From positions 864,001-928,000 of the forward strand of contig CAXXGO010000006.1 in assembly GCA_963666835.2 (NCBI GenBank): a stretch of DNA of 64,000 bases. The letters run 5' to 3'. This document shows positions 9,346 to 29,286 of this stretch, piece by piece (position 1 is the first letter of the stretch; each line of letters opens with the position of its first letter). A program made the translations under genes and the position numbers. Below the pieces are notes generated by a model. That model ran no database searches. It had not been told where the DNA came from and saw nothing but the letters and a program-made list of their open reading frames with translations. Origin of the DNA: Phycisphaerae bacterium. Lineage in GTDB: Bacteria > Planctomycetota > Phycisphaerae > UBA1845.

Positions 9346-10818
9346 CTAGAGCAGCGACAGAATCTGGGTGGCTTGCTGGTTTACCACTCCGAGCAGGGCA
9401 ACGCCCGCCTGCATGAGCACTTGCTGTTGATTCAGAGTCGCCGTCGCGATGGCGTAGTCCGTATCGCCGATCACCGAAGACGCTTCGGTCAAACCGGTCT
9501 GGCTGGCCTGCAACGCGTTGATTGCGCTACCGACCTGGAACTTCTGGAAGCCCCCGACGCGTCCTTGAATGGAGGCGACGTCGGAGATGGCCGCCCGAAT
9601 CGAGTCCAGCGCTCCGGCCACGTCGGTCCGCAAGTCGACGGAACCACCGGACTTGAGCTCTGACAGCCGCGAGACGGCGCCGCCTCCGCCGAGGTTATAT
9701 GTGGCGAGCGAGTCTATCCCGATCGTAGCCCGGGTGGTCGATTTGGTTCCGAGCTGGAAGGTGGCGCCCCCTGTGGCCCGGACCGTGAACGTCGAGGAGG
9801 TGTTGGCCCCCGTGTTGCCCTTGCCGAAGTCCTCGTCAAGGGTGAACGACATACTCAGCCCGTTGGCGCTGTAGGAAACGTCAAGGCCATCGGTTCCCGT
9901 GGTCTGCCCGTTGATGGTGATGACGGCGTCGGTGCCCACGGTTTTGGTGACGTCGGTGAAGTCGTTGGCGGTGCTGCTGTCGCTGGTCGCGGTGCCCCAC
10001 GAGCTATTGACCGTACCGCCGGAGATCAGCTCGAGGCTCACGAAGGCGTCGGCTCCGTACGCGGTGGAACTCAAGGTGATACCGGTGGCAGCGACCATCG
10101 CGGACACGCCGGTCTGGTCTTTGGCGGCGTTGATGGTAGCGACTACCTGGGCCTGGGTCTGCCCGCTGACGATTGAGAGGGTCGCTGCTCCGTCGGCGCC
10201 GGCGACTACGATCTCGGTCGTGCCGGTAGTCTTGGTCGTAGCGGCCGGAGTCATCAACGCGGCGGTGGCCTGAGCGGTCGCGGCGGAGGTGACCCGCGAT
10301 ACTGAGAGGGTGGTATTCGACGTGCTCTGGCTGCGGGAATAGACCCTCAGCGACTCGACGTAGTCGGAGTCGACGTTAGCCACGGCGATTCCGAAGGTTC
10401 CGTCGAGGAGCTTCTTGCCGTTGAAGTTGGTCTGGTTGACGATGCGGTCTATCGCCGAGAGGGCGTCATCAACCTGCGATTGGTTGGCGGAGATCTCCGA
10501 GGCGGTGAGGTTGGCATCACTCGCCGAGGCCTGGACCAGCGTCTGGATCTCGCCGAGCAGGTTCGATACTTCGGTGATCGCCTGGTCGGCGACCGTGAGC
10601 ATCGAATCCGTTCGCTGGTTGTTGACCAGTGACGTTTGCACCGCCCGCAGCTCGGCGTTGATCCCCTGCAGGGCGATCAGCCCGGCCGGGTCATCCTTGC
10701 CGGCGTTGATCCGCTTACCGGTCGTAAGCTGCGACATCGTCGTGGACTGGGCGGCCGCCTGCTGACTGAGGATGTTCAGCAGTGTCGTTGTGTTCGAATT
10801 CGTAATCGTGAGTGCCAT
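9346..10818 (-). CDS. fliC: Flagellin (copy 1)
   Basis: QLTTGKRINAGKDDPAGL, TNFNGKKLLDG, IGDTDYA...ILSLL. Confidence 0.93.
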   Translation of the reverse strand: MALTITNSNTTTLLNILSQQAAAQSTTMSQLTTGKRINAGKDDPAGLIALQGINAELRAVQTSLVNNQRTDSMLTVADQAITEVSNLLGEIQTLVQASASDANLTASEISANQSQVDDALSAIDRIVNQTNFNGKKLLDGTFGIAVANVDSDYVESLRVYSRSQSTSNTTLSVSRVTSAATAQATAALMTPAATTKTTGTTEIVVAGADGAATLSIVSGQTQAQVVATINAAKDQTGVSAMVAATGITLSSTAYGADAFVSLELISGGTVNSSWGTATSDSSTANDFTDVTKTVGTDAVITINGQTTGTDGLDVSYSANGLSMSFTLDEDFGKGNTGANTSSTFTVRATGGATFQLGTKSTTRATIGIDSLATYNLGGGGAVSRLSELKSGGSVDLRTDVAGALDSIRAAISDVASIQGRVGGFQKFQVGSAINALQASQTGLTEASSVIGDTDYAIATATLNQQQVLMQAGVALLGVVNQQATQILSLL

Positions 10819-16843: not shown

Positions 16844-18316
16844 ATGGCACTGACGATCACGAACACTCAGACGATGACGCTGCTGAACATCATCAACCGG
16901 CAGACGTCCGCCCAGACCACCACGATGAAGCAGCTTACCACCGGCAAGCGGATCAATGCCGGTAAGGACGATCCCGCCGGGCTGATCGCGCTGCAGGGGC
17001 TTAACGCCGAATTGCGCGCGGTGGAGACGTCCCTGGTCAATAACCAGCGCACCGACTCCATGCTCACCGTAGCCGACCAGGCCATCGCTGAAGTATCCAC
17101 CTTGCTCGGCGAGATCCAGACGCTGGTACAGTCGTCGGCCAGCGACGCGAATCTCACCGCCGCCGAGATCTCCGCCAACCAGTCGCAGGTTGACGACGCT
17201 CTCTCGGCCATCGACCGCATTGTCAATCAGACCAATTTCAACGGCAAGAAACTGATCGACGGCAGCTTCAGCATCGCGGTCGCTAATGTCGATTCGGACT
17301 ACGTCGAGTCGCTTCGGGTCTATTCCCGTAGCCAAAGCACCTCGAACACGACTCTCGCCGTGTCCCGGGTGACCTCCGCGGCTACCGCCCAGGCCACCGC
17401 CGCTTTGATGACCCCGGCCGCTACCACCAAAACCACCGGCACGACGGAAATCGTCGTTGCGGGCGCCGACGGTGCGGCCACCCTCTCGATCGTCAGCGGG
17501 CAGACCCAGGCCCAGGTGGTTGCCACGATCAACGCCGCCAAGGACCAGACCGGCGTATCCGCTATGGTCGCCGCTACCGGGATCACCTTGAGTTCGACCG
17601 CTTACGGGGCCGACGCCTTCGTAAGCCTCGAGCTGATCTCGGGCGGTACGGTCAACAGCTCGTGGGGAACCGCGACCGGCGACAGCAGCACGGCCAACGA
17701 CTTCGCCGACGTCAGTAAGACCATCGGTACGGATGCGGTCATCACTATCAACGGACAGAGCACCGGCACCGACGGCCTCGATGTATCCTACAGCGCCAAC
17801 GGGTTGAGCCTGTCCTTCACGCTCGATGAGGACTTCGGCAAGGGTAACACGGGGGCGAATACATCCTCGACCTTCACCGTGCGGGCTACCGGAGGGGCTA
17901 CCTTCCAACTGGGGACCAGCTCCGCCACCCGAGCGACAATCGGGCTCGATTCGCTGGCGACGTATAACCTCGGCGGCGGAGGGACGATTGCCCGACTGTC
18001 TGAGCTCAAGTCCGGCGGGTCCGTCGATCTGCGGACCGACGTTGCCGGAGCGTTGGATTCGATTCGGGCGGCTATCTCCGACGTCGCGTCCATCCAGGGG
18101 CGAATCGGCGGGTTCCAGAAGTTCCAGGTCGGCAGTGCGATCAACGCCCTGCAGGCCAGCCAGACCGGGTTGACCGAAGCGGCAACCGTGCTAGGCGACA
18201 CTGACTTCGCCGTGGCAACCGCCGAGCTGAACCAGCAGCAAGTGCTGATCCAGGCGGGTATCTCTCTGCTGGGCGTAGCGAATCAGCAGGCGGCCCAGAT
18301 TCTGTCCCTGCTCTAA
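16844..18316 (+). CDS. fliC: Flagellin (copy 2)
   Basis: Same motifs and same 490-aa length as copy 1; AGGAG RBS. Confidence 0.93.
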   Translation: MALTITNTQTMTLLNIINRQTSAQTTTMKQLTTGKRINAGKDDPAGLIALQGLNAELRAVETSLVNNQRTDSMLTVADQAIAEVSTLLGEIQTLVQSSASDANLTAAEISANQSQVDDALSAIDRIVNQTNFNGKKLIDGSFSIAVANVDSDYVESLRVYSRSQSTSNTTLAVSRVTSAATAQATAALMTPAATTKTTGTTEIVVAGADGAATLSIVSGQTQAQVVATINAAKDQTGVSAMVAATGITLSSTAYGADAFVSLELISGGTVNSSWGTATGDSSTANDFADVSKTIGTDAVITINGQSTGTDGLDVSYSANGLSLSFTLDEDFGKGNTGANTSSTFTVRATGGATFQLGTSSATRATIGLDSLATYNLGGGGTIARLSELKSGGSVDLRTDVAGALDSIRAAISDVASIQGRIGGFQKFQVGSAINALQASQTGLTEAATVLGDTDFAVATAELNQQQVLIQAGISLLGVANQQAAQILSLL

Positions 18317-19826: not shown

Positions 19827-21425
19827 CTATTTGCATACTCCTTTGAAGCACCGGTTCGAGCAGCATTCGTCGTTCGACGAACACGATTCGCCGCGCGAGA
19901 GGCACGACGTGCATCCGGGGATCGGGGTGTACACGCACCCACTCACGGAATCGCACGTGTCCGTTGTGCATTCGTCGCCGTCGTTGCAGGTGATCGGATC
20001 GTTGACACACGTGCCGCCCGAGCAGCTATCGGTAGTGCAGGCGTCCGCGTCGTCGCAGTCCATCGGGGTGTTCACGCACAGGCCCGCGTCACACGTATCG
20101 ATCGTGCAGGAGTCTCCGTCAGCGCACTGCGAATCAAGGCTACACGTGAATGAACAGTCGATGGCACAGTTGACTTCGTCTTCAGTCCCTTCGCAGACGG
20201 CATCACCGCAGCACGAGCCGACCGCCGGCTCAGTGGTGCAGGTGTTGCCGCTCGCGGTGCAGCGCGCATCGCCGCAGCCGACCGGGTTCGTGCCGGCGCC
20301 GTCACCGCAGCAGTACCGGCCGCTGGGCTTGCCGCCCTGGTTCCCATTGCAGTCGGCCGGGCACGACAGGCAATCCTCCCCGTCGCCGATCTCGCACACG
20401 CCGTTACCACAGCTTGCTCCGCTGCCGGCAAAGCAGTCGGTGGGGCAGTTGTTGCAGTCTTCTCCGACTTCGCAGGTCCCGTCGGAGTCACAGTCACCCG
20501 TTCCCATGCAGACCAGTTGCAGGCCGCAATCCATGAGGTCGTCGCAGTCGGTGTAGCCGTCGCAGTCCTCGTCGATACCGTCATCACAGACCGACTCGTG
20601 CAGCGGTGGAGCCCCGCAATCCGTGAAGCAATCGCAGGCAATCTCACCCGGATCGCACACCAGGTCCCCGTCACAGACAACGTCCGCACAAAGCGGATCC
20701 GCCGAGCAATCCTGGTCGGTGCAATCCGGGAAGCCGTCACAGTCGTTGTCCTTGCCGTCGCCGCAGGTGGACTCGCTGACCGGAGGAGCTCCGCAATCGG
20801 CCGGACAGTTGCAGCCGTCTTCGCCGGCAAAGCACGTGCCGTTGCCGCACTGAATCGGTACTCCCGTCAACGTAACGGAATCGAAGAAGTGCGTCCGTTG
20901 CGTCTCCCAGACGATGTCGTAGCCGAACGCGACGTATACCGTGGTGAGAGAACTGACCGACAGGGTCCGCTGCATACTGAATGAATCCCAACCGTCCTCA
21001 GTGATGGCGTCGATGCGCTCTCCGTAGCTGGTCTGCGTAAAATCCGATTCCATGGTGGGCTCGTAGGGGCCGATGAACCCGATCGCGTACCACGACGTCA
21101 GGTCGTTATGGCCATCGGACCACAGGTGATAATTCAGCCCAATCGTCCACGTGCCGGCGGGGAGCTGCAGCTCACGCACCATGTAGACCTGGCCGTCGTC
21201 ATTCCTGCCGTCGGCCGTGAAATCAAGTGATGACAGACCATCCTGGGCCTGCTCCGTGGAGGGCCACACCGACCACGCGATGGGTGGATTGCCGATCCGA
21301 GCGCGCCAGGGCCCGAACCCGTCCTCAAAGGACTCGAAGATCGTGTCTGCGGTCGCTGGGGCCCCCGCCGTCAACAACCCGAACACAAACGCGATCGCGC
21401 AGATTGCTCGCATGCTTCTCAACAT
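19827..21425 (-). CDS. Secreted cysteine-rich repeat protein
   Basis: Signal peptide; CGNG.C...E.C..CP.DC, CxDGxDNDCDG and CDDxDxCTxDxC repeats; C-terminal knottin-like C-C-CC-C-C. Confidence 0.8.
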   Translation of the reverse strand: MLRSMRAICAIAFVFGLLTAGAPATADTIFESFEDGFGPWRARIGNPPIAWSVWPSTEQAQDGLSSLDFTADGRNDDGQVYMVRELQLPAGTWTIGLNYHLWSDGHNDLTSWYAIGFIGPYEPTMESDFTQTSYGERIDAITEDGWDSFSMQRTLSVSSLTTVYVAFGYDIVWETQRTHFFDSVTLTGVPIQCGNGTCFAGEDGCNCPADCGAPPVSESTCGDGKDNDCDGFPDCTDQDCSADPLCADVVCDGDLVCDPGEIACDCFTDCGAPPLHESVCDDGIDEDCDGYTDCDDLMDCGLQLVCMGTGDCDSDGTCEVGEDCNNCPTDCFAGSGASCGNGVCEIGDGEDCLSCPADCNGNQGGKPSGRYCCGDGAGTNPVGCGDARCTASGNTCTTEPAVGSCCGDAVCEGTEDEVNCAIDCSFTCSLDSQCADGDSCTIDTCDAGLCVNTPMDCDDADACTTDSCSGGTCVNDPITCNDGDECTTDTCDSVSGCVYTPIPGCTSCLSRGESCSSNDECCSNRCFKGVCK

Positions 21426-21992: not shown

Positions 21993-22286
21993 ATGACATT
22001 TGACGAGTTACAGGCGATCATCGAGAAGATGTACAGTGACAAAGACAGAGCGCGGGGCACGCCGGCGACGTTTCTGTGGTTGACCGAGGAGATCGGCGAG
22101 CTGGCGTCCGCATTGCGCGAAGGCACTCACGCGGAGAAGTGCGCGGAGTTCGCCGACGTGATCGCCTGGCTGGTGACCCTGGCCAACATCAACAACGTGG
22201 ACCTGACCGAGGCACTCCACGCCAAGTACGGCAACGGCTGCCCGGGATGCGGGCATTTTGTTTGCGAGTGCGACTCCAAGCCCTGA
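21993..22286 (+). CDS. MazG-like nucleotide pyrophosphohydrolase
   Basis: WLTEEIGELA...EFADVIAWL; C-terminal CPGCG..VCEC. Confidence 0.85.
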   Translation: MTFDELQAIIEKMYSDKDRARGTPATFLWLTEEIGELASALREGTHAEKCAEFADVIAWLVTLANINNVDLTEALHAKYGNGCPGCGHFVCECDSKP

Positions 22287-22597: not shown

Positions 22598-25069
22598 ATG
22601 AATGACTATCCATTCCGGGTCGCCCGCCGGTTTCAGCGGGCCGGTTCGCTCGGAGTTGCCGTGGCCTTCGGTATCGTGACCCTTGGCGGGGTAGGCGCGG
22701 CACACGCGGCCGATCGCATGGTGTTATGCGAGGAATTCACGAACCAATATTGAGCGGCGTGCTCTTACGCGGGTCCCGCGTTAGGCTACCTCGTCGACAT
22801 CTACCCTGAGTCGTTCGCGTTCGTACAGTATCACATGTTCGACGACTACGATGACCCGTGGAGCGATGGTCGGTGGTCGTATTTCGGCGCCGAGCACACT
22901 CCGACGACCATCTTCGACGGGGTTGATTACGTCGAGGGCGGAATCAGCGATACTAACCAGCAGTATCACATCTTCCGAACCAACCACTTTCTCCCGCAGC
23001 GCGCGGTGCCGACGGATGTGACGCTCGAGCTGGCCGGTGAGTTCGTTACCGGGCAGACTTACCAGATCACGGCCACCGTGGGCATCGAGGCGGGGGGAAC
23101 GGGCAAGACCGTCCGGGTCTACATGGTGCAAGTTCTGGACCACTGGCCGGCGTCGCCGAGCTACTCGCGCAACACGTTCAAGCAAGCGGGCGACGTCAAA
23201 GAGATCACCCTCGCTCCCGGCGAGACCGATGCTGCGGTGGAGATGTTTACGTTCGACGCGGATAGCTGGGCGAATCAGGAGGAGATCCGGATCATCGCGT
23301 GGGCCCAGGCCGCGGAGGATGCCGGTCCGGTCGAAATGTACCAAGCCGCGGTTCTGAACTGGCCGCTGGTCTCCGCCCCCGGCGACGCCGACGGTGATGG
23401 CATTCTGGACGGGGCGGACAACTGCCCGCAGCACTACAACCCGACCCAGGACAACGGCGACACCGACGATTTCGGCGACGTGTGCGACAACTGCGATACG
23501 ACGGACAATGCGGACCAGGACGATGGTGACGACGACAGCGTCGGCGATGCCTGTGACAACTGTCCGGCACTACATCATCTCGATCAGGGCGATAACGACG
23601 GCGACGGGGTCGGTAATCCGTGCGACTGGTGCCCCGACGTTTCCGCTCCCGGCGGGGTGGACGAAGACGGGCGTTCCCTGGGAACGATCGACCTCGATTG
23701 CGACGTGGACGGCGACGACCTGGCCCTGTTCAACGGGTGTTTCACCGGTCCGGATATCACGGAACCGCCTCCGGGATGTGATCCGGCCGATTTCGCCCGG
23801 GCGGATCTCGACGGAGACATTGACGTCGACCTGGGCGACCGGGCGATCTTCGATCAGAACTACACCGGCCCGCTGGTCGGGCCGGCGTTGTACACCGGGT
23901 CCACCGCCTGTTCTACTTGCCACTCGACGAATCACACGGAATGGGCCGAGACCATCCACGCCACCGCGTTCGATACACTGGTAGCGAGCGGAGACGGAGA
24001 CAACCCCTTGTGCTTCCCGTGCCACACGGTGGGGTACGCGGAGGCGAGCGGTTTCGTCGACTTGGCCACCACACCGCAACTTGCGGACGTTCAATGTGAA
24101 AACTGCCATGGAGCCGGCAGCAACCACATCGCGTCTCCCGGCAGCGCGTCGATGACGATTGACCTGGCCTCGAACCTCTGCGGAGCGTGCCACCAGTCAT
24201 GCCACGGGTTGTGCGGGGACGATCACCATCCCCAGTTCGAACAATGGTCGGAGTCCAAGCACTCCACGGCGCTGAGCGACATTCAGTGGGAGCCCGGCAC
24301 GGTTGCAGAGTGCCTCGAATGTCACTCCACGGACTACCGCATGGCCCCCGCAGGGGATAAGCCCGGCCTGTTCGAAGTAGTGTTCGATCTAGAGTGCGTG
24401 GCCTGCCACGACGCTCACGGAGGGCCCAACGTCGGCCAGCTTCGCCTGCCGCCGCGGCAGTTGTGTGCCGAGTGCCACACCACCGGCGTGGTGGTGCCCG
24501 GCGAAGAGCCCGAGCAACCGCAACTCGAAGCCCTGCACGGGGAAGGCGGCTTCAAGCTGGACGGCACCTCGTTGAAAGGGCCTTATACCGAGCACTGGTG
24601 GGGAATCCCGACGGAATGCGCCGCCTGCCATGTGTTCGCCGAGCCCTACGGCGGGCCGGATCAGCCGGTCAACAGCGGGCACACCTTCGAAGCGAACCGG
24701 CGGGCTTGCGGCCCGTGCCACACGGAAGAATCCGCCAACGCCCTGCTGGGCATGTTGCAGGGAGAGATCTCGGCACGCCTGGCGGGCATCGCCCATTACT
24801 TCGATCCTGGTGATCCGCTGTATGTTGACCCGGCGACCCTGACCCCGGAGCAGTTGGCCCGGTACAACGTTGCCAAGTTCAACTACGAGTTCGTGATCGC
24901 GGACAGGTCCCACGGCGCGCACAATCCCGGCTACGCCCGGGCGTTGCTGGCCCAGACTGAGTTCTTTTTCGGGATCACACCCTGGTTGCTTCAACCGGGA
25001 GGAGACGATATTCCCGCGCCGGCCGACGGTGTTCTGGAGATTGCAGAAGGAGCGGAGGTGGGCCGATGA
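22598..25069 (+). CDS. Predicted selenoprotein (823 aa, Sec52): signal peptide, UxxC Omp28/thioredoxin-like domain, TSP3 repeats, dockerin-like domain, nine-heme cytochrome c
   Basis: ATG 22598 is in frame with the listed ORF 22835-25069 through a single TGA (22751-22753): MVLCEEFTNQY-U-AAC-SYAGPAL; nine CxxCH motifs; stop overlaps next start (ATGA). Confidence 0.85.
22754..22787 (+). promoter_or_regulatory. Bacterial SECIS-like hairpin
   Basis: ACGCGG-GTC-CCGCGT stem (22767-22781); GGTC apex follows the TGA after an 18-nt spacer. Confidence 0.75.
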
Positions 25070-26058
25070 GGATCACTCGACGTGAGTTCCTGAAAGCGGC
25101 TGCGGCCATGGTCGCGGCGGGGAAGATGGCTCCCGTAGCATTCGCGAACCTGCAGGAGACTCTGCGGGGCGAAGGCGCGCCACGAGTCATCTGGCTGCAA
25201 GGGGCGGGTTGCGACGGATGTGCGATCTCGCTGTTGAATTCCGTGCATTACACGACGGTCGACGACCTGCTGGTCAACACGATCGATCTGGAGTTCCAAA
25301 ACAACCTCATGGCCGCGGCCGGTGATCTTGCGGTATCGATCGCGCAAGCCGCCGCCGCCGAGCCCGGCTATATCCTAATCGTTGAGGGGGCCGTCCCCAC
25401 CGGAGCGAGCGGCCAGTATTGCCGGCTGTGGTCGGGAATGACGATGCACAGTGCCCTGCTCGCGTACGGCCCGGACGCCGGCAGTATTATCGCGTTGGGG
25501 GCTTGCGCATCGTTCGGGGGGGTCTCGGGTGGGGCGCCGAACCCGACCGACGCCCAAGGTGTGGGCGACATCATCGGAGACGACCCGCGGTTGATTAACA
25601 TCCCAGGTTGTCCGGCCCACCCCGATTGGCTTGTGGGCACTCTGACGTACCTGCTGACCACGGGGCATACTCCGCCGTTGGATGAGTATCACCGGCCTTT
25701 GGAGTATTTCGGCAAGCGGATTCACGACAACTGCTTCAAGCGGCGCGAGTATTGCGGTACCGGGGTTTTTGCCTCCAACCTCAGCGAAGAGGGCTGCATG
25801 GAGTTCCTCGGCTGCAAGGGCAAGAAGACCTACGCTGATTGCCCGATCCGCAAGTGGAACAGCGGTGAAGAGGGCGGCAGCGGTGTGAACTGGTGCATCG
25901 GGGCGCGGAGTCCGTGTCTTGGTTGCGTGGAGCCCACTTTCCCGGACGGGATGTCTCCGTTCTACGTGTATTCGCCTACCCCGGAGAAACTCGAGGGGGG
26001 CGCCGGCTCCGAAACGCTGCAGACCAAACCGCAATCGATTGACAAGAAGCCGAGTTGA
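25066..26058 (+). CDS. [NiFe] hydrogenase small subunit, Tat-exported, group 1a-like
   Basis: TRREFLK Tat motif; CDGC, GAC, PGCP, HDNC, GCKG, NWC...PCLGC; no C-terminal TM anchor. Confidence 0.93.
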   Translation: MRITRREFLKAAAAMVAAGKMAPVAFANLQETLRGEGAPRVIWLQGAGCDGCAISLLNSVHYTTVDDLLVNTIDLEFQNNLMAAAGDLAVSIAQAAAAEPGYILIVEGAVPTGASGQYCRLWSGMTMHSALLAYGPDAGSIIALGACASFGGVSGGAPNPTDAQGVGDIIGDDPRLINIPGCPAHPDWLVGTLTYLLTTGHTPPLDEYHRPLEYFGKRIHDNCFKRREYCGTGVFASNLSEEGCMEFLGCKGKKTYADCPIRKWNSGEEGGSGVNWCIGARSPCLGCVEPTFPDGMSPFYVYSPTPEKLEGGAGSETLQTKPQSIDKKPS

Positions 26059-26106: not shown

Positions 26107-27555
26107 ATGGCGACGACGATCACAATTGACCCGGTAACCCGCATTGAGGGCCACCTCGAGATCGAAGTGACCGTCGATCTGGTCGGCGGTGACCAGCAGG
26201 TCATCTCCGCCAAGAGCGTGGGGAAGATGTTCCGCGGGTTCGAGATGATCCTGGCCGGTCGGGACCCGCGCGATGCCGCGCAATACACCCAACGCATTTG
26301 CGGAGTGTGTCCGGTGTCTCATGCGATGGCCTCGACCAGGACGCTGGACAACGCCTTTGGGGTCACTCCCCCGGACAACGGCCGGATCGTGCGCAACTTG
26401 ATCCTCGGGGCGAACTTCATCCAATCCCACGTGTTACACTTCTACCACCTTTCGGCGGTAGACTTCATTGATACGACGGGACTGCTGGATCTTTCGCCGT
26501 GGGCTCCGCGCTACGTCACTGCGGACATGGCGACCGGGGCTACGGCCGGCACGCTGGTGAACAACTACCTCGCGGCACTTGCTATCCGACGTAAGGCGCA
26601 TCAGATGGGGGCTATTTTCGGAGGCAAGCTCCCGTGTACCGGTTCTTTTGTGGTCGGTGGGGTCACTGAAGTAGTCAGCGCGGAGAAGATCGCCGAGTTT
26701 AGGAGTCTCCTGACGGAAATTCGCAGCTTCATCGATAACGTGTATATAGCGGATGCCACGACGGTGGCAGGTCTGTTCCCGGATTACTACTCGCTTGGTG
26801 TCGGAAACGGCAATCTGCTTGCCTATGGCGCTTTCGACCTTAACTCCGCGGGCACCAGCAGACTCTTCGCAAGCGGGCGGCGTACGGACGGCTCGGCGCA
26901 AGCGATGGACCCGGCCGACATAACCGAACGGGTAACGTATTCGTGGTATACGCCGGCCTGCGACGACCTTAACCCCGCCGCCGGCGCGACGGAGCCGGAC
27001 GCCGCCAAGCCCGGGGCCTATTCCTGGATGAAGGCCCCGCGCTATCTGAATAAGGCGCACGAACTGGGACCGCTGGCGCGGATGTGGATCAACGGGTATT
27101 ACACCAACGGCGTATCCGTGCTCGATCGGATCGTAGCCCGGGCGCAGGAGGCGAAGCTGATTGCCGATACGATGGACGGCTGGCTGGATCAACTGGTTCC
27201 GGGCGATCCGGTTTATCAGTCCAGTTCGATTCCAACTACCGCCAGTGGAGTGGGGCTGACGGAGGCGCCTCGCGGAGCGCTGGGGCATTGGATGGACATC
27301 GATAGCTCGGTGATTTTGCGTTATCAAGTGGTTACGCCGACCAATTGGAATGCCTCGCCGCTGGACCATCTGAATCAACCGGGTCCGATCGAAGCGGCGC
27401 TGGTGGGTACTCCCGTTGCGGATATGAGCCAGCCGATCGAGGTTCTGCGCGTGGTTCACTCCTTCGACCCGTGCCTGGCTTGTGCGGTCCACATGGTCCG
27501 GCCGGACGATCGATCGAAGGGTTCGAGAATAGTGATTCAGCCGGGTATCGCCTGA
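26107..27555 (+). CDS. [NiFe] hydrogenase large subunit
   Basis: IDPVTRIEGH, RICGVC (L1), EAPRG.LGHW, DPCLACAVH (L2) plus cleavable C-terminal tail. Confidence 0.96.
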   Translation: MATTITIDPVTRIEGHLEIEVTVDLVGGDQQVISAKSVGKMFRGFEMILAGRDPRDAAQYTQRICGVCPVSHAMASTRTLDNAFGVTPPDNGRIVRNLILGANFIQSHVLHFYHLSAVDFIDTTGLLDLSPWAPRYVTADMATGATAGTLVNNYLAALAIRRKAHQMGAIFGGKLPCTGSFVVGGVTEVVSAEKIAEFRSLLTEIRSFIDNVYIADATTVAGLFPDYYSLGVGNGNLLAYGAFDLNSAGTSRLFASGRRTDGSAQAMDPADITERVTYSWYTPACDDLNPAAGATEPDAAKPGAYSWMKAPRYLNKAHELGPLARMWINGYYTNGVSVLDRIVARAQEAKLIADTMDGWLDQLVPGDPVYQSSSIPTTASGVGLTEAPRGALGHWMDIDSSVILRYQVVTPTNWNASPLDHLNQPGPIEAALVGTPVADMSQPIEVLRVVHSFDPCLACAVHMVRPDDRSKGSRIVIQPGIA

Positions 27556-27592: not shown

Positions 27593-28138
27593 ATGATCTT
27601 GCCACCACGACAAACCGAACGCGCCCGCGTGGAGAAGTGTCCGGTCCTCATTCTGGGCGTGGGCAACATCCTGATGCGCGACGAGGGCGTGGGCGTGCGG
27701 GTAATAGAGGCGATGGGAGAACGCCCGATCCCGCCCGGCGTCGAGTTGTTCGACGGTGCCACGGCCGGGATCGATCTGCTCGATGCCCTGGCCGATCGGC
27801 GCAAGGTCATCGTGATCGATGCGATGGACGGACATTGCGAGCCGGGCACCGTACTGCGGCTGTGTCCGGAGGATCTGACTCCCAGCCCCGGGCAGAGCGT
27901 CTCGTTGCACGAGGTCGGCTTCCTGGAAACTCTGACAATTGCCGGGCGGCTTGGCGCCGCTCCGGAGGAAGTGGTTATCTACGGCGTCCAACCCCAAGTG
28001 GTGGAGTGCGGATTGGATCTGTCCCCCGAGATCTCGCGGTTGGTCCCGCGGATCATCGAGCTGGTGATGGCGGATGTGGATAGTGGCGTGTGCGGCTCCG
28101 TTCCGCGGCAAGAGCCGGAAAGAGAAAGCTCATTATGA
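27593..28138 (+). CDS. Hydrogenase maturation protease (HyaD/HybD family)
   Basis: LGVGNILMRDEGVG, DGATAG, IDA, SLHEVG. Confidence 0.93.
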   Translation: MILPPRQTERARVEKCPVLILGVGNILMRDEGVGVRVIEAMGERPIPPGVELFDGATAGIDLLDALADRRKVIVIDAMDGHCEPGTVLRLCPEDLTPSPGQSVSLHEVGFLETLTIAGRLGAAPEEVVIYGVQPQVVECGLDLSPEISRLVPRIIELVMADVDSGVCGSVPRQEPERESSL

Positions 28139-29286
28139 AGCGTTTGGCACTTTCATCGATAGTCCTTTTGGCAGCGCTGGGTTTCTCCGGAACGGCTTGG
28201 GCGGAGCCCGCGTGGGGCGTCAACTGTTTGAGTTGTCACGGTGGCTGGCAGACCGACACGGTGTTCATCTTGAACGAAGACGGGACGGCCGATCCCGACG
28301 AGAGCGCCACCGGCGCACCGGATCGCGGGAGCCTTCCCGTTTTCATGGCTTCCCCGGGTGACACCAAGACGCTGGAGATGGAGCTGGTCGGGCTGTCCCC
28401 CGAAGATACTTATGCGGTCGAGCTCAAGCGGCTGCGTTTCCTCGGAGTTGTCTCCGGCAAAGAGCTGACGTACACCGGTGATTGTGCGTGGCCTTACTGG
28501 GGCGAGCCCGGAAAATACTTCACAGAACCGCCGATTAGCTATGAATGGGGCTCAGATCCGACAGCATTCAGCTTCGATCTGACCGTGCAACCGGATGCAC
28601 CCTACGACTACTATGACCTGGTTTTCGCGGTAGCGGGCAAATGGGCGGCCGACGGCGGCCTTTTCTATGATGAGCAGCATTTCTATCTGCGCGTGACCGA
28701 GATACCTTCGGCCCCTCTGGCTATCGATGAGCCCAAGAACCGGTACATCTCCTTCAATGCCCAGGCCGTGGGTACGTCAGCCATCCAAGTGGAATTGGTG
28801 GCCAGCGATCCGTTCCCGGGTTCCAGCGGAATGCTCGGCTGGGTGGAGGAGCCGGACGCAAACGGTCTGGCCGGTATTGGGGATACTCCGGTCTTCCGCA
28901 CTTGGGATGAATCGGCCGTTCACATTGGTGACTGCGGAATCGTGCCGGGATCCGAATACCAACTCCGGGCTTCATTCGACGGAGAGACGATGTCCGATCC
29001 GACAACGGTTAACACGGCGGACGTACCGGCTCCGAAGTATTGGGCGGACATGGTCGGCGGGTTCGTCGGCGATGCGTGGTTGGGCCCGAACGGGATCGTC
29101 AACATGAGCGACATCCAGGCGGCCCTGCAGCGTTTCTCCGGGTCCCCGAGTGCCCCGCCGTTGACCTGGGTCGATCTCGACAGCGAAACGCCCAACGGTC
29201 TTATTAATATGACGGATATTCAGCAAGCGGTCGGCGGGTTCAAAGGCATGCCGTACCCGTTCGGCGATCCGGTATCCTGCCCGTAA
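28135..29286 (+). CDS. Secreted mono-heme (CxxCH) protein with C-terminal dockerin-like repeats
   Basis: ATG 28135 overlaps the protease stop; signal peptide ending AWA; CLSCH near mature N-terminus; PNGIVNMSDIQ / PNGLINMTDIQ. Confidence 0.75.
   Translation: MKRLALSSIVLLAALGFSGTAWAEPAWGVNCLSCHGGWQTDTVFILNEDGTADPDESATGAPDRGSLPVFMASPGDTKTLEMELVGLSPEDTYAVELKRLRFLGVVSGKELTYTGDCAWPYWGEPGKYFTEPPISYEWGSDPTAFSFDLTVQPDAPYDYYDLVFAVAGKWAADGGLFYDEQHFYLRVTEIPSAPLAIDEPKNRYISFNAQAVGTSAIQVELVASDPFPGSSGMLGWVEEPDANGLAGIGDTPVFRTWDESAVHIGDCGIVPGSEYQLRASFDGETMSDPTTVNTADVPAPKYWADMVGGFVGDAWLGPNGIVNMSDIQAALQRFSGSPSAPPLTWVDLDSETPNGLINMTDIQQAVGGFKGMPYPFGDPVSCP

Follow-up and report, generated by a model that had tools for sequence, protein, structure and literature searches.

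Multiheme cytochromes bearing selenocysteine (Sec) are already known, and the available part of the table in a review from 2026 (PMC13188914) contains MccSep, an UshA-like protein and an octaheme entry. In the same part, Table 1 also lists the family NF045500 under the name 'Hypothetical protein GOS_C' as a predicted selenoprotein with a UxxC motif. According to the accessible sections of the respective papers, the hemes of MccSep are proposed to restore the reduced state of a Sec/Cys centre that serves polysulfide reduction (PMC13510729), HBP35 binds hemin and shows a thioredoxin activity that depends on Cys (PMC2907840), and hemes 2 and 5 of OcwA are open, each beneath a His-His pair (PMC6703420). 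In this study, we analyzed a stretch of 64,000 nucleotides (nt) from a Phycisphaerae bacterium (GenBank assembly GCA_963666835.2, contig CAXXGO010000006.1, positions 864,001 to 928,000 of the forward strand), which as a whole is referred to as the window. Its gene at 22598-25069 joins a UxxC domain of the HBP35/Omp28 type to an OcwA-like nine-heme cytochrome c, stands at the head of a hydrogenase operon and almost certainly encodes a selenoprotein.

A previous sequence-only reading of this stretch had extended the open reading frame (ORF) at 22835 by 79 codons to an ATG at 22598 across one TGA, thereby restoring a signal peptide ending in GAAHA and the motif ADRMVLCEEFTNQY-U-AAC. Both ATG codons indeed lie in the same frame, and with the single in-frame TGA at 22751-22753 read as U, the frame encodes 823 amino acids (aa); 771 open codons follow the AAC and end at the TGA at 25067-25069. 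The translation yields the proposed leader, as judged by eye, and then ADRMVLCEEFTNQY directly before U52-A-A-C55. A GGAG sits 9-12 nt 5′ of ATG 22598, and orthologs have a comparable leader ahead of a conserved RxVLCEEF. All nine CxxCH motifs of the earlier reading were located (residues 438, 472, 500, 528, 572, 600, 623, 674, and 704), the Sec residue lying ~385 residues before heme 1. The thrombospondin type 3 (TSP3)-like repeats also found support, with Pfam TSP_3 matching 41 of 41 orthologs at E ≤ 0.1 and this protein below cut-off (E 6e-4). For the proposed dockerin-like pair, Pfam dockerin type I (PF00404) matched 8 of 41 orthologs weakly (E 0.002-0.1) and this protein not at all; as a tentative label for the paired Ca loops, 'dockerin-like' is plausible. 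Gene callers give a 744-aa form of the protein. Since assembled contigs of two studies share the TGA at 22751, it is not an assembly error; one contig with 0 differences over the whole stretch may be the source of the window, and two contigs of one sample from the other study cover 22751 without a listed difference.

The UxxC domain was found in 80 genomes out of 279 from the order, with 216 matches in total. Among the 150 matches listed, we took the best-scoring ones with open frames of at least ~800 codons and used the 40 regions around them as ortholog set, a choice that favors fusions and favors no particular neighbor; all 40 encode nine hemes. At the codon of U52, 18 of these orthologs have TGA, 22 have TGC or TGT, and none has another codon. 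In 20 heme-free paralogs from the same regions, the site holds TGA in 12, a Cys codon in six and a Gly codon in two. We also examined 111 matches in the protein database. A full N-terminus, recognized by pattern, was found in 54 of them, all with Cys at the site, and most of the remaining 57 begin just past the Sec site, as expected of gene callers that stop at TGA; one of the 57 was a pattern miss and three belong to a second family described below (CxU). A quick tree needs nine switches between Sec and Cys, at least four of them forced by well-supported branches. The genome under study, 92% complete, encodes tRNA-Sec (selC), selA, selB, and two selD genes, and selA was found in four of five genomes tested that have the Cys form. 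One selD (G000:C1:1328296-1329225) lies within a 740-codon frame without TGA; the other (C6:1524365-1525294) has its own TGA and a GGTAC-loop hairpin 32 nt downstream.

A hairpin with a GGTC apex at the spacing of the Escherichia coli fdhF element had been noted before and holds up: counting from the T of the TGA, GGTC falls on positions 22-25, the identical offset as in the fdhF record, in a loop of 5 nt (GGTCC) versus 4 nt in fdhF, on a stem of positions 18-21 with 27-30. Stem and GGT apex are intact in 17 of 18 TGA orthologs versus 3 of 22 Cys orthologs, and the same peptide AGPA is written in two codon strings, a compensatory change apart, by 16 TGA genes and in 13 strings by 18 Cys genes, kin among these genes not being independent. 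Over 30 distinct TGA genes, 99% of the stem cells are paired, with eight two-sided changes at one pair and no covariation elsewhere. The pattern, which was defined on these genes, fits 14 of 22,927 TGA contexts of the genome, three of them being the gene and its paralogs. Against shuffled sequences, the stability of the hairpin is unremarkable (z 0.15 to -1.24 over four folding windows); its significance comes from the comparison with orthologs. At an orthologous locus in a bin titled Thermoanaerobaculia (L099), the hairpin has a GGGCC loop and a long, stable stem (z -3.6). A global code with TGA as Trp was rejected, since TGA terminates this and neighboring genes and homologs have Cys, not Trp, at the site. 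The Sec machinery, the exchange of TGA and Cys, the hairpin tracking the TGA, and the fold of the domain thus bear out the hidden selenoprotein of the sequence-only reading, for which homologs with Cys or TGA and Sec genes in the genome had been named as checks.

The N-terminal domain was modeled confidently over residues 38-258. Its best structural match was HBP35 (5y1a; Z 20.6, root-mean-square deviation 3.0, 210 aligned), followed by 2axo (Z 18.4), Omp28 (2r2c, Z 12.0), and thioredoxin (1v98, Z 10.6); a sequence search of the PDB with this domain gave nothing below E 0.65, its placement coming from the fold search only. The NCBIfam model NF045500, 'Omp28-related selenoprotein', matched the domain at E 8e-9 with 100 bits versus a cut-off of 200, and matched 41 of 41 orthologs (best E 1e-36). 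The Sec domain is therefore a distant relative of this already predicted family and is not a member by the NCBI threshold. Fold match and kinship together agree with the Omp28/thioredoxin-like UxxC domain postulated before. The same genome encodes two paralogs of the domain that lack hemes; both share the TGA column and the hairpin, in which, as in the hairpin of the second selD, the 5-nt loop is GGTAC. They lie at G000:C6:954328-955899 and G000:C1:1961800-1965756, one being a 523-codon frame and the other a long frame with a repeat-rich C-terminal part.

For the heme domain, the closest sequence match in the PDB was OcwA (6i5b, E 3e-24), followed by 6qvm (E 1.5e-11). It shares with the OcwA type the nine CxxCH motifs in the same order, a c554 half and an NrfA half, and the three-helix bundle; in the structural alignment, only the C-terminal part aligned (Z 11.9). 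The His pair at heme 2 is kept, with H543/H544 aligning to H281/H282 of OcwA (H544 in 41 and H543 in 38 of 41 aligned orthologs). At heme 5, E639/Q640 replace the pair H380/H381. Directly before the kept His pair lies C535-H536-G-L-C539, and C535, H536, C539, and H544 are invariant in 41 of 41 orthologs. This insert is present in all 107 nine-heme database homologs and in none of 53 unfused relatives showing the segment of hemes 4-5, drawn from 71 more distant loci without Sec domain, of which eight were skipped for their heme number and ten were out of register. Two closer unfused relatives at ~50% identity also have no insert. In a tree of heme domains, all 48 insert-bearing domains form one clade (SH-aLRT, an approximate likelihood ratio test, 100). 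Three nine-heme paralogs (L061, L066, and L204) carry an Omp28-type domain, with Cys where readable, and have no hydrogenase nearby. At the heme-2 pocket they show YH in place of HH, and in the tree they fall with the CxU fusions.

The fusion gene is the first of a five-gene operon. The gene of the hydrogenase small subunit lies directly downstream in 38 of 41 loci, over four families; it is absent in two, and in one the contig ends. Of the 41 loci, 36 showed the large subunit and 34 the fifth gene, the contig ending too early in most of the others, and the stop/start overlap between the first two genes is conserved in most loci. The fusion was retained in each intact copy of the hydrogenase operon examined. 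By sequence, the large subunit is nearest to [NiFeSe] hydrogenases in the PDB (5jsu, 1cc1, and 2wpn, E 1e-126 to 1e-123), with NCBIfam NF045518 below and NF033181 above cut-off. Its L2 motif contains Cys in 37 of 37 subunits found (DPCxxC, not DPUxxC), which rules out that the enzyme itself is of the [NiFeSe] type. In 72 distant nine-heme loci (L101-L172), no hydrogenase genes occur in the fetched flanks of up to 7 kb. A hypD gene is encoded elsewhere in the genome. Because the operon contains no gene for cytochrome b or c3, the nine-heme protein would be the obvious partner of the hydrogenase, and from this gene arrangement such a partnership is likely. The relatives fall in the Phycisphaerae according to record titles and database names. 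The locus from the Thermoanaerobaculia bin contains the whole operon with the TGA and is nested among Phycisphaerae relatives, which is explained by transfer or mis-binning.

A second, unrelated Sec domain of exported proteins was found on the same type of heme chain. At L101:6407-8254, the Cys insert is kept without an Omp28 domain, and a signal peptide and FAFGTLCG come before a TGA in frame and a hairpin of 7 bp that closes a GGTC loop. The corresponding domain of ~170 aa, here called CxU, has C-x-U or C-U near its N-terminus (L101, L179-L203, and L211-L214). Of 279 genomes of the order, 43 contain it, and 41 of 50 matches enclose a TGA; it was not found in the genome under study (92% complete). 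The 25 best-scoring loci all have the TGA behind C or Cx, and the hairpin is present in most of them. The domain gave no NCBIfam match and, over 25 members, nothing better than E 0.02 in Pfam. The domain was modeled confidently as all-beta (predicted local distance difference test, pLDDT, 95); Foldseek returned no match at E ≤ 0.001, VIA-align a best Z of 4.8 among 48,161 chains, which is no proof of a new fold, and the ESM Atlas no usable match. Five of the 25 loci join CxU to an insert-bearing nine-heme domain, and no hydrogenase lies in their fetched regions; the other 20 loci are heme-free. One further CxU copy (L209) has a frameshifted or broken heme part downstream. The insert clade splits into a group from hydrogenase operons and a group with mixed CxU and Omp28-type N-termini (support 81), so the N-terminal module was swapped one or more times, the replacement being another Sec module. 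A single swap event fits a need of the insert-bearing heme clade for a selenol/thiol partner.

We tentatively favor the reading that the fusion protein is a dedicated redox partner of the downstream hydrogenase and feeds a thiol relay, and give it, as a whole, slightly less than an even chance. In a first step, SelB/SECIS (selenocysteine insertion sequence) recoding would place Sec at U52, about which little doubt is left. Secondly, the [NiFe]-hydrogenase, exported by the twin-arginine translocation (Tat) pathway, probably oxidises H2 and passes electrons to the nine-heme chain, as suggested by the conserved operon without another cytochrome partner; the direction may be reversed. Thirdly, a C535/C539 dithiol beside heme 2 would turn one-electron heme chemistry into two-electron thiol chemistry and exchange with the tethered U-x-x-C domain, which outside the cytoplasm would reduce putative substrates of the S-S, persulfide/polysulfide or Se kind. 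This last step as a whole, from the exit at heme 2 via C535/C539 and U52-C55 to a substrate, is possible, with the balance somewhat against it. A chain that is devoid of OcwA's heme-5 His-His pocket, keeps the heme-2 pocket and has the C-H-x-x-C loop added is consistent with it, and electron flow from the hemes to the selenol would find comparative support in the Cys insert and the swap of Sec modules. By analogy, MccSep may serve as a precedent for the re-reduction of a Sec/Cys centre by hemes, but is a different protein. That hydrogenase, OcwA-type heme wire and exchangeable selenol module together form an extracytoplasmic H2:disulfide (or H2:polysulfide/selenium) oxidoreductase is a rather unlikely, more specific version of this idea. 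The heme wire would here end in the C-H-x-x-C loop, and the module would be a UxxC thioredoxin domain or, in the sister clade, the CxU domain, a beta-sandwich.

Several observations weigh against the thiol relay. As a mobile module, the UxxC domain also occurs on many secreted proteins devoid of hemes, and its distance from heme 1 amounts to ~170 residues of repeats. Sec is not essential, as more than half of the orthologs use Cys, even with selA in the genome. Insert and fusion arose on one branch, amounting to one event and at least one swap and not to many independent cases. In the full-length AlphaFold model (pTM, the predicted template modelling score, 0.52), N-terminal domain and linker are confident, and pLDDT is <50 over much of the heme domain; therefore, no domain contact can be read from it, and it is the sequence alignment with OcwA that places the insert near heme 2. 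A complex prediction of the N-terminal domain against the heme domain, for which Cys orthologs were used and four hemes included, scored 0.00 in two runs and speaks for neither side.

These points lead to the best-surviving alternative, which we consider possible and on balance rather improbable: the nine-heme domain might be the acceptor of the hydrogenase and an OcwA-like terminal reductase (for Fe oxides, shuttles or nitrite), with the Sec domain off the electron path, either as an accessory for folding or protecting the Cys-rich exported protein or for heme binding as in HBP35. The spread of the UxxC domain over many unrelated exported proteins and the long linker speak for such a passenger role, as do the mostly heme-free CxU loci (20 of 25), the hemin binding of HBP35 (PMC2907840), and OcwA itself, which in the available part of its description works without a thiol domain (PMC6703420). 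It leaves unexplained, however, why the fusion is kept in all intact operon copies examined, why an invariant extra Cys pair occurs exactly in the fused clade, and why the module was swapped for another Sec domain.

There is a small chance that C535, H536, and C539 with H543/H544 instead bind a putative metal over heme 2 (Cu, as at heme 2 of MccA). The protein could then be an H2-fed reductase of sulfur or nitrogen oxyanions, with the Sec domain maintaining the Cys ligands in the reduced state or loading the metal. In MccA, the Cu is held by two Cys, and here the insert puts Cys and His beside the heme-2 pocket, with the heme-5 pocket lost. In the accessible part of the OcwA study, hemes 1-4 and 6-9 of OcwA superpose on MccA, the active site lies at heme 2, and the lack of sulfite reduction by OcwA is tied to absent copper (PMC6703420). 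Against a metal site, no MccA appeared among the PDB sequence matches returned. Finally, the TGA as a genuine stop, as a sequencing error or as the lesion of a pseudogene, which would leave the leaderless 744-aa ORF or no product, could draw on the gene calls and on the unremarkable stability of the hairpin, but has next to no chance and is already largely refuted by the shared column of 18 TGA and 22 Cys codons in 40 orthologs, the same codon in contigs of two studies, the hairpin tracking the TGA, the normal use of TGA as stop in the operon, which speaks against a global reassignment to Trp, and the fact that a c-type cytochrome without leader cannot be exported for heme attachment.

Table 1. 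Coordinates in the window of the parts of the fusion gene and of the downstream operon genes.
Feature	Position	Strand	Basis or remark
Signal peptide, residues 1-37, basic/hydrophobic, ends GAAHA	22598..22708	+	Judged by eye; ortholog leaders
HBP35/Omp28-type domain, residues 38-258, thioredoxin fold and Ig (immunoglobulin)-like half, U52-x-x-C55	22709..23371	+	Structure match, NF045500
Predicted selenocysteine TGA (U52)	22751..22753	+	TGA/Cys exchange among orthologs
SECIS-like hairpin, 4-bp stem, GGTCC loop	22768..22780	+	Comparison of TGA and Cys orthologs
Acidic Cys-rich linker, TSP3-like repeats, then two DxDxDxDxD loops with helices (dockerin-like)	23372..23881	+
OcwA-like nine-heme cytochrome c domain and C-terminal helix bundle	23882..24997	+	PDB sequence search, Foldseek
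C535-H536-G-L-C539 insert, then H543-H544	24200..24229	+	Ortholog alignment, OcwA alignment
[NiFe]-hydrogenase small subunit, twin-arginine signal, ATGA overlap with fusion gene stop	25066..26058	+
[NiFe]-hydrogenase large subunit, nearest solved structures [NiFeSe] enzymes, Cys (DPCxxC)	26107..27555	+
Hydrogenase maturation protease	27593..28138	+
Exported protein, one CxxCH near N-terminus	28135..29286	+	No Pfam or NCBIfam match

The C-terminal domain of the fifth operon gene (~190 aa, window 28700-29286) recurs at ~55 other places in the genome, where it ends exported proteins, and may be a lineage-specific sorting or anchoring tag. Upstream of the fusion gene, an exported Cys-rich repeat protein (19827-21425, minus strand) and a 97-aa ORF (21993-22286, plus strand), which presumably resembles a MazG-type pyrophosphohydrolase, are not conserved beside orthologs. 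The DNA upstream of the gene showed no conservation among loci L052-L100, and a scan for promoters and terminators stayed at chance level. Two flagellin genes (9346-10818, minus strand; 16844-18316, plus strand) are 83% identical over 1472 nt and inverted around a 6-kb segment. The genome has 17 ORFs with at least four CxxCH motifs (maximum 16) and two further hydrogenase-like large subunits.

With about half of the database copies truncated just past the Sec codon, a family of exported Phycisphaerae selenoproteins has been hidden. Cytochromes of the OcwA type, so far a Gram-positive surface reductase, gain a new genetic context as hydrogenase partner, and the Sec resides in the partner of an enzyme that belongs to the [NiFeSe] lineage but is of the Cys type. 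If the relay is true, it would be a new way of coupling H2 to thiol chemistry. An oxidoreductase of the kind described above would draw directly on H2 for thiol reduction outside the cytoplasm and need no NADPH, flavin or DsbD-type membrane relay, and the fusion may let these bacteria use hydrogen for sulfur or selenium redox chemistry there. The function lends itself to testing, since Sec and Cys orthologs with ~60% identity occur naturally.

The fusion, the Cys insert, the link to hydrogenase and the CxU family do not appear in the available part of the review's table (PMC13188914). A literature search for selenoprotein with Omp28 and for OcwA with selenocysteine returned no paper, most subscription journals being outside its scope. 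The fusion architecture, which the sequence-only reading did not know from described selenoproteins, is thus absent from this table, and its Sec domain is akin to the predicted NF045500. The sequence-only reading was right about a selenoprotein fusion and overlooked the hydrogenase operon and the kinship to OcwA and NF045500.

NF045500 likewise has its UxxC in a domain of the Omp28 type, behind which TSP3-like repeats follow, but its model of 377 positions has no nine-heme part, and no hydrogenase link is given in the available part of the review's table (PMC13188914). The HBP35/Omp28 proteins of Porphyromonas gingivalis (5y1a, 2r2c) have the thioredoxin fold, the Ig-like half and a CxxC at the same place; they differ by an identity of only 12-15%, Cys instead of Sec, and no cytochrome fusion. 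OcwA (TherJR_2595, 6i5b) of Thermincola potens, to which the undecaheme 6qvm is related, agrees in the order of CxxCH motifs, the heme-2 His pair and the other distal His positions. It is described, in the accessible part of the paper, without thiol domain and without redox disulfide (PMC6703420), whereas the protein in the window has E639/Q640 at heme 5, the inserted C-H-x-x-C loop, probably H666 where OcwA has Met (the alignment being one residue off), and a gene tied to a hydrogenase in a planctomycete.

MccSep/ExtKL of Geobacter sulfurreducens (NF040886) is likewise an exported multiheme cytochrome with Sec, but has, according to the available part of its description, five hemes, with the Sec located in the heme active site next to a Cys that ligates a heme (PMC13510729), and not in a separate thioredoxin domain as here. 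Membership in this family was rejected, with E 0.2 to 9wt8/9wt9, nine hemes, and a weak match of NF040886 to 1 of 41 orthologs. In the UshA-like selenoprotein (NF041198), a Sec domain is fused to a c554-like heme segment matching residues 430-535 (E 1e-31). Only this segment is common, the score is 110 versus a cut-off of 275, and the Sec domain is another one, with a CxU motif in the available table (PMC13188914). The periplasmic [NiFeSe] hydrogenases of Desulfovibrio and Desulfomicrobium (5jsu, 1cc1, and 2wpn) provide the nearest large-subunit structures and also have a Tat-exported small subunit. Known [NiFeSe] hydrogenases partner with cytochrome c3, whereas here the large subunit has Cys, the Sec is on the partner cytochrome, and this partner is OcwA-like. 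Overall, this is a mis-annotated selenoprotein family in a new, H2-linked context, both halves of which have known relatives.

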